From IMG/VR virus record IMGVR_UViG_2778261527_000005: a stretch of DNA of 11,731 nucleotides. The stretch is one strand, 5' to 3'. A program made the position numbers and the translations under genes. Of this stretch, positions 7,952-8,050 are shown one piece after another. This DNA is from a virus (taxonomy: Duplodnaviria; Heunggongvirae; Uroviricota; Caudoviricetes). The notes under the pieces are model-generated. The model did no database searches. It was not told the DNA's origin and was given only the letters and a program-made list of their open reading frames with translations. The first letter of the stretch is position 1; the number at the start of each line of letters is the position of its first letter.

Positions 7952-7986
7952 TAAAAAAGCCCGCAGAGCTTGTGCTGTGCGGGCTT
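7952..7986 (-). terminator. Rho-independent terminator (minus strand) between the ssrA fragment and the integrase
   Basis: 9-bp GC-rich stem aagcccgca (7957-7965) pairing with tgcgggctt (7978-7986), 12-nt loop, followed on the minus strand by a U-run (plus-strand A-run 7953-7956). Confidence 0.6.
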
Positions 7987-8020
7987 AGTAGACTTTACTG
8001 AACTTCAGTACATCAATATT

Positions 8021-8050
8021 TGGTGGAGCTGGCGGGAGTTGAACCCGCGT
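8021..8050 (-). other. ssrA: 3'-terminal 30 nt of tmRNA gene ssrA (attachment-site core); a fragment only, with no remainder of the gene upstream
   Basis: The reverse complement of 8021-8050 is ACGCGGGTTCAACTCCCGCCAGCTCCACCA, matching the recalled 3' end of E. coli tmRNA (T-arm plus acceptor plus CCA). Sequence at 8051 onward does not continue as ssrA. Confidence 0.75.

Follow-up and report, generated by a model that had tools for sequence, protein, structure and literature searches.

We estimate at about 93% the probability that the 11,731-nt stretch of DNA analysed here (the window) carries the junction of two elements integrated in tandem at the tmRNA gene ssrA, a prophage similar to Citrobacter phage ΦNP lying in front of a P4-type island, with the 30 nt at positions 8021–8050 being the displaced 3' end of ssrA. 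Tandem arrays at the tmRNA gene have been documented (Williams 2003, J Bacteriol 185:1059, 'Traffic at the tmRNA gene', as cited in PMC7192596 and PMC10107115), and arrays of integrative elements at tDNA are described in the work on Islander and TIGER (PMC4383910, PMC7192596). Such arrays consist of an intact tDNA with one displaced 3' fragment and one integrase per element, their elements vary independently among strains, and ssrA is their most enriched target. The array represented in the window shares these features, differs from the known arrays in nothing of principle and is an ordinary instance of this well-documented mode of insertion; what is particular to it is the pairing of a ΦNP-like prophage encoding DarTG1 with a P4-type mobilisable island. 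Displaced tDNA fragments and terminators supplied by islands are likewise already documented.

The displaced ssrA fragment

On the plus strand, window positions 8021–8050 read TGGTGGAGCTGGCGGGAGTTGAACCCGCGT, the reverse complement of ACGCGGGTTCAACTCCCGCCAGCTCCACCA, which is the exact last 30 nt of the annotated 363-nt ssrA in Escherichia coli strains 74-2, P13-6, and CFSAN061772; in strain 74-2 the annotated gene ends precisely at the base aligned to window position 8021. The fragment, which lies on the minus strand and forms the distal att junction of the prophage, comprises the entire T-arm (GCGGG/TTCAACT/CCCGC), the 3' acceptor strand and the terminal ACCA as judged from the fold, and together with the T at 8020 it recurs in direct orientation at the end of the intact ssrA of related genomes, which makes a repeat of 31 nt. 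Junction alignments revealed that homology to ssrA breaks exactly at 8050/8051. ARAGORN found no tRNA or tmRNA gene in the whole window and the Rfam tmRNA model (RF00023), for which the gathering score is 47, gave only a partial match with 22.6 bits; with only the 3' 30 nt there, we rejected the seam as a tmRNA gene. Both the 30-nt ssrA end and the missing gene body had been proposed from the sequence of the window, and the first of these proposals now agrees base for base with the annotated gene of three strains, the second with the ARAGORN count of zero and the subthreshold Rfam match.

A mismatch-only search of the window and 20-kb flanks returned no second copy of the core. That the window by itself contains none could be expected if the fragment had been left behind by the deletion or decay of an ssrA gene, or resembled ssrA by coincidence, and had not been duplicated by an integrase. 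Against this, an exact 30-mer match is expected by chance only ~2e-14 times (arithmetic for 11.7 kb and two strands), related genomes contain an intact ssrA and the fragment in direct orientation around a prophage equipped with int and xis genes, and the breakpoint coincides with the published att segment of ΦNP (PMC6456863). We therefore regard decay or coincidence as an explanation of negligible probability and treat the fragment as an integrase-made duplication.

The displaced fragment in the window is wild type, including its last 14 nt, CGCCAGCTCCACCA (8021–8034, minus strand), which are the core of the P4-type island. Displaced fragments were also located in related loci (L005 ~5995–6023, L006 6084–6112, L007 21195–21207, and L009 23473–23486), and some fragments outside the window are damaged: L006, L007, and the K-12 pseudogene psaA have the 1-nt deletion dT357, and L005 has a 5-nt deletion. 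The dT357 lesion inactivates tmRNA upon excision of CP4-57 (PMC10107115). Because a damaged fragment that is returned to ssrA by excision kills tmRNA, the outcome of excision differs between arrays, and because the fragment in the window is wild type, precise excision of the prophage should leave ssrA functional. An 11-nt T-loop-like motif, GTTCAACTCCC, is present in inverted orientation between ypjA and a DUF6387 gene at the distal island edge (L007 21361; L003 4186); this motif could be due to chance or be a relic of another att site.

Two integrases at one gene end

The prophage portion of the window starts with the int-side arm and the region upstream of darT1 (8051–8178), as delimited by junction alignments. 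Its tyrosine integrase of 389 aa (9528–10697, minus strand) is transcribed toward the att fragment, contains the Pfam domains Arm-DNA-bind_2 (PF12167, DUF3596) and Phage_integrase, and has 92% amino acid identity to the integrase of ΦNP. The start of int is overlapped by an excisionase gene (10658–10876, minus strand; phrog_2917, 1.6e-45), which is annotated as xis in ΦNP, and ΦNP is the best phage match with 84% nucleotide identity over int and xis. The original prediction of a lambda-type integrase with its 3' end proximal to the fragment and cargo in between was correct with respect to orientation and cargo, but the enzyme belongs to the ΦNP family with Arm-DNA-bind_2, and Pfam reported no lambda-type N-terminal arm-binding domain in it. 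Judged from its domains and the adjoining xis, this integrase appears to work as lambda Int does, that is, as an arm-binding tyrosine integrase assisted by Xis, while representing another subfamily.

ΦNP has been shown experimentally to lysogenise E. coli K-12 via the 3'-terminal 25 bp of ssrA, which are duplicated with regeneration of ssrA (Magaziner et al. 2019, PMC6456863). The published 25-bp attP/attB segment, 5'-TGGTGGAGCTGGCGGGAGTTGAACC-3' (PMC6456863), is identical to window positions 8021–8045, and the ΦNP genome record (OR565852) ends in the 3' sequence of ssrA, after which come cargo and int in that order, as in the window. Thus, both close homology and an att segment beside the int module identify the enzyme as a ΦNP-family integrase targeting ssrA. 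In addition to the 92% identical integrase, the overlap of xis with int, the identical att segment, and the cargo between att and int, there are differences: the block of identity with E. coli ssrA is 30–31 nt here and 25 nt in ΦNP, the cargo is DarT1–NADAR here but in ΦNP consists of a gene for an AAA ATPase and ~1 kb of unannotated sequence, and the remainder of the phage segment in the window matches other lambdoid phages.

On the other side of the fragment, a tyrosine integrase of 409 aa (6625–7854, minus strand, with the ATG at 7854) was assigned to the P4-type (IntA/CP4-57) family. It matches the Pfam models Arm-DNA-bind_3 (DUF4102), Phage_int_M, and Phage_integrase (5.6e-23, 3.4e-24, and 8.1e-20, respectively), exceeds the cutoff of NCBIfam NF007246 (434) with 444.6 bits, shares 48% identity with IntA of K-12, and has the HxxR...H...Y motifs (HGMRS, LAH, AAYNR) at its C-terminus. 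The gene starts 167 nt from the end of the fragment at 8021, on the same strand and with its 5' end nearest, and the same layout of int and ssrA occurs beside an intact ssrA in strain 74-2, in 11 species representatives from the terminator scan described below, and in 2 more in which ssrA is cut by a contig end. Domains, NF007246 score, identity to IntA, and coordinates all agree with the P4-type integrase with a proximal 5' end that had been anticipated. The two integrases align with each other over a short stretch only, at ~25% identity.

The closest well-known counterpart of the island is CP4-57 of K-12 (intA, psaA). In both, a P4-type integrase gene lies immediately downstream of, and co-oriented with, an ssrA end, a terminator hairpin is provided by the island, and the 14-nt core has a second copy next to ypjA. 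Unlike CP4-57, the island in the window encodes an integrase that is only 48% identical, carries genes for a serine recombinase, a pair of ParB-like proteins, and an ankyrin protein as cargo, with a relaxase and sugar-utilisation genes in its relatives, and abuts a displaced fragment rather than the intact gene.

The original prediction had both elements using the same attachment site. An indel-tolerant search, performed after the mismatch-only search, identified the distal fragment of the P4-type island in strain 74-2 as the 13-nt sequence CGCCAGC-CCACCA (TGGTGG-GCTGGCG) between the island and ypjA (L007 21195–21207), and the same fragment is found in K-12 as the pseudogene psaA at the end of CP4-57. 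Islands of this type, as seen in 74-2 and K-12, therefore duplicate only the last 14 nt of ssrA, CGCCAGC(T)CCACCA, whereas the prophage duplicates the last 30 nt including the T-arm. Given duplications of 14 and 30 nt, the elements share a target gene end and not one crossover site; the prediction holds insofar as both elements are at the ssrA 3' end, but their cores overlap without being the same.

Comparison with complete genomes and order of arrival

We compared the window, which is E. coli DNA, with a set of 5,426 complete genomes. No complete genome in this collection covers at least 80% of the window, and because the window includes neither an intact ssrA nor the outer ends of the prophage and the island, the array was reconstructed from relatives. 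Strains with only the island, including 573, LR-28, and 74-2, match window positions 109–8050 at 99.9–100% identity (six mismatches in 74-2); the match stops at 8050, and beyond this position these strains have the intact ssrA body followed by smpB, which is the prophage-free state. The full array is present in P13-6 and CFSAN061772. Here smpB and ssrA are followed, after ~235 nt, by a type II restriction-modification pair and prophage genes, then by xis and int, NADAR and DarT1, and next by the fragment with the terminator and the P4-type int, behind which come the serine recombinase, two ParB-like genes, and further sequence. In these two strains the prophage is bounded by an exact direct repeat of 31–32 nt, made up of the 30 ssrA nucleotides and one or two additional bases, with the intact ssrA at the far end, which is the combination of intact tDNA and co-oriented fragment that Islander looks for. 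We infer that an intact ssrA also lies at the far end of the prophage in the genome from which the window derives.

The prophage arm (8051–8400) was found in 28 of the 5,426 genomes, in 25 of these at 99% identity or more, and the P4-type arm (7700–8020) in 1,263. The two arms are joined in 13 of the 5,426 genomes, among them strain C7. The neighbours of the prophage arm are of at least five kinds, namely three alleles of the integrase in the window, a K-12-type intA arm (L004 and one IMG/VR contig), a satellite that is truly P4-like and has psu and ogr/delta (L006), and the ypjA flank alone. The last configuration is that of ECONIH4 (L005), in which the prophage arm is joined directly to the ypjA flank without a P4-type island. 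In IMG/VR, the free attP junction gave no match, and the only match to the int-side junction was an integrated prophage adjoining a K-12-type intA arm.

The left flank of the junction in ECONIH4 is the same as the sequence that adjoins intact ssrA in strains with the prophage, which suggested an attP-like fusion; we rejected this reading because the left flank is common ypjA-side sequence. This flank of ~155 nt is present beside ypjA in 4,169 of the 5,426 E. coli genomes (77%), so L005 is simply a prophage-only configuration. The ssrA-proximal arm of the phage carries a ~92% identical copy of the same flank (L003 44470–44639; L005 5835–5995; L007 21034–21195), which sits between the intact ssrA and the phage restriction gene and includes a terminator, the stem of which differs by paired changes. 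On this sequence evidence, the phage attP seems to include a captured region from downstream of ssrA besides the 3' end of the gene.

Taken together, each element has its own integrase (6625–7854 for the island and 9528–10697, with xis, for the prophage) and its own tDNA fragment (8021–8050 for the prophage and, for the island, the 13-nt dT357-type fragment in 74-2 and psaA in K-12), and the two are present or absent independently, as island-only strains (74-2, 573, and LR-28), a prophage-only strain (ECONIH4), and prophages with other neighbours all exist. The comparison with strains lacking one element that had been suggested as a check, as well as the proposed junction of two elements at ssrA, are thus borne out by these independent distributions and by the fact that, in relatives, the far end of the prophage adjoins an intact ssrA.

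These configurations can be accommodated as follows. A ΦNP-like temperate phage would integrate by a tyrosine-recombinase crossover inside the T-arm/acceptor segment of ssrA, presumably within the T-loop region. The far arm of the phage, which is outside the window, would regenerate the ssrA 3' end and bring a new downstream flank and terminator, while the old 3' end would stay joined to its former downstream neighbour. This neighbour would be the att arm, the terminator (7953–7986), and the integrase gene of an island of the P4 type (IntA/CP4-57 family), for whose own insertion the last 14 nt of ssrA had served. The predicted array would consist of ssrA, the prophage (xis, int, NADAR, DarT1), the 30-nt fragment, the terminator, the P4-type int, the island, a short distal fragment, and the native flank.

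The order of arrival is a separate matter. Either copy of a core is open to insertion by a second element (PMC7192596), and the 14-nt P4 core lies wholly inside the displaced fragment; the arrangement therefore leaves the order undecided. If the prophage had been resident first and the P4-type island had later entered the displaced 30-nt fragment, the same arrangement would have resulted. The complete 14-nt P4 core within 8021–8050, the possibility of entry at either restored core in a tandem array (PMC7192596), and the existence of a prophage-only genome, ECONIH4, are all compatible with this reverse order. It would, however, need the P4-type integrase to accept a 30-nt attB without upstream ssrA sequence, and several observations argue against it. 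The island arm is ~45 times commoner than the prophage arm (1,263 versus 28 genomes), island-only strains are 99.9–100% identical to the window across 7.9 kb, and a nearly invariant prophage arm with many neighbours fits repeated recent entry of the phage better than the arrival of many islands behind a rare phage. Moreover, in experiments ΦNP has lysogenised K-12 at ssrA, in front of CP4-57 (PMC6456863). K-12 carries this P4-type island directly behind ssrA, so the tandem state is what a ΦNP lysogen of K-12 would be. We consider the reverse order unlikely, although it retains some weight, and that the prophage arrived after the island is quite probable. The original prediction of a prophage inserting in front of a pre-existing island is thus favoured by distribution and precedent, but the arrangement alone is no proof of it.

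The orphan terminator and the cargo of the two elements

Next to the fragment, a hairpin with a U-run, AAGCCCGCACAGCACAAGCUCUGCGGGCUUUUUU, is encoded on the minus strand at 7986–7953 and represents the intrinsic terminator of the att arm of the P4-type island, as indicated by its fold and by its position behind tmRNA in relatives. The 106-nt stretch that contains it has a folding energy of -36.1 kcal/mol (z-score -4.85) and none of 200 shuffled sequences was as stable; a terminator beside the fragment had been predicted, and fold and shuffles leave it standing. To define its distribution we scanned one genome per species for the identical hairpin, which was present in 16 species representatives including Citrobacter, Kluyvera, Enterobacter, Klebsiella, Raoultella, Xenorhabdus, Photorhabdus, and Salmonella diarizonae. 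An intact tmRNA was detected by ARAGORN ~35 nt upstream of the hairpin in 11 of the 16; in 2 the hairpin follows an ssrA body truncated by the contig end, and in the remaining 3 it follows only a displaced fragment, of 36, 30, and 12 nt. The hairpin is directly behind an intact tmRNA in strain 74-2 as well. Because it is mostly found behind intact tmRNA, the normal role of the hairpin is to terminate ssrA once the island has replaced the native flank, and it is orphaned in the window because the prophage supplies its own flank.

The stretch that separates the ssrA end from the terminator (7987–8020, minus strand) belongs to the att arm of the P4-type island; it is identical in island-only strains, and the same arm is found downstream of ssrA in Kluyvera and other genera. 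At about 7996–8010 the arm contains a perfect palindrome, ACTGAAGTTCAGT, which could form a small hairpin and shows up as a self-inverted match; it is kept in one of two arm variants across genera and is a possible protein-binding site.

The Rfam model of the Salmonella small RNA IsrM (RF02763) matches the minus strand at 8083–7953 with 47.9 bits (E = 6.8e-11), chiefly in the 3' end and terminator, and in Salmonella IsrM is located just upstream of, and co-oriented with, STM2763 (PMC2330248), as the seam is with respect to the P4-type integrase gene. The seam could accordingly be a functional sRNA gene with an IsrM-like minus-strand transcript running from the prophage arm through the fragment to the 7953–7986 terminator. 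However, the score is far below the gathering score of 376, and ~250 of the 329 model positions have no counterpart: the first 19 and the last ~60 positions, the latter being the terminator, align with nothing between them, and the match is driven by the terminator and the ~25 nt upstream of it. In addition, no minus-strand sigma-70-like promoter was found in 7600–8400, and the conserved portion is the ssrA terminator of the island, which needs no sRNA to explain it. With most of the IsrM body missing, we rejected the seam as an IsrM gene, and a functional sRNA of this kind is very improbable. The shared 3' end and terminator and the shared place upstream of a co-oriented gene offer a lead rather than a finding, namely that IsrM, being upstream of the co-oriented STM2763, may occupy the equivalent spot behind an ssrA-associated island.

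The cargo next to the P4-type integrase, all on the minus strand (3007–6342) and assigned by Pfam, PHROGs, and NCBIfam, consists of a large serine recombinase of 518 aa (4786–6342) and two ParB/RepB-like proteins of 298 aa each (3900–4796 and 3007–3903), which belong to PHROGs of unknown function. The three genes form an operon, which might serve in maintenance, as a second recombination system, or in defence. This trio adjoins the P4-type integrase in all related islands examined (L001–L003). A PADLOC scan gave no system match for the trio, only a weak MTase_II match to one ParB-like protein. Further along, an AT-rich stretch encodes a 412-aa ankyrin-repeat protein (618–1856, minus strand), which has a weak partial match to the PADLOC candidate PDC-M72A (4e-14). 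Thus, the visible island cargo, that is, the serine recombinase, the ParB-like pair, and the ankyrin protein, has no strong match to a defence family. The first ~110 nt of the window (1–112) differ from the island-only strain 74-2, which has the 3' end of manA there. The reverse complement of this stretch starts with GGAAGGTGCGAATAAG, which we take to resemble an IS5-family terminal repeat, and an IS5 family transposase is listed in this region of the related strain PSS-10; positions 1–112 are probably an IS insertion that truncates the sugar-utilisation module of the island.

The prophage cargo between att and int consists of a DarT1 toxin gene (8179–8802, plus strand; Pfam DarT, 3e-24) and the gene for the DarT1-associated NADAR antitoxin (8806–9495, plus strand; Pfam NADAR-DarT1, 1.6e-89, 299 bits). 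DarT1 is a guanine-specific DNA ADP-ribosyltransferase (PMC11543638). The toxin in the window is ~98% identical to DarT1 of E. coli C7 (PDB 8BAQ) and retains the catalytic residue E152, so that a DarT1 with the catalytic glutamate is followed by its cognate NADAR, as defines DarTG1. DarTG1 of C7 (PMC11543638; PDB 8BAQ) shares these properties, and strain C7 carries the same prophage arm and a junction with a P4-type integrase; the systems of C7 and of the window differ by a few amino acid substitutions. DarT1–NADAR is the sole documented defence system among the cargo genes of the window. The original description of a composite defence/accessory island therefore applies on the prophage side, where DarT1–NADAR is a documented defence system, but the P4-type cargo is without a strong defence match.

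The interval between att and int is variable in ΦNP-like phages (window 8051–9527; L008 1–2877), and for the E. coli 042 lineage an AAA ATPase and a DNA adenine methylase are listed in the region of the match that surrounds it; the slot looks like a hotspot for cargo or defence genes. The prophage end that adjoins intact ssrA encodes a cytosine methyltransferase and an endonuclease, which form a type II restriction-modification pair (L003 40549–44405; L001 29289–31965), and in P13-6 also a GIY-YIG protein. With restriction-modification at the ssrA end and DarT1–NADAR at the other, both ends of the prophage hold defence-type cargo.

It is improbable that the seam is more than a scar, either by giving rise to an IsrM-like sRNA from the prophage arm or by preserving a 14-nt core that keeps the elements separately excisable, with arrays reshuffling modules. 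If the core-preserving reading were true, the att–int slot of the ΦNP family would be a site for exchangeable defence cassettes, with DarTG1 here and an AAA ATPase and methylase elsewhere. The tandem array leaves the current view of integration at tRNA and tmRNA genes unchanged and accounts for the orphan terminator. Its value for annotation is that the boundary of the two mobile elements is set at 8050/8051, which allows DarT1–NADAR to be assigned to the ΦNP-like prophage and the serine recombinase/ParB module to the P4-type island. The model DarTG1 system, that of E. coli C7, is thereby shown to be carried by a phage, as cargo placed between att and int.
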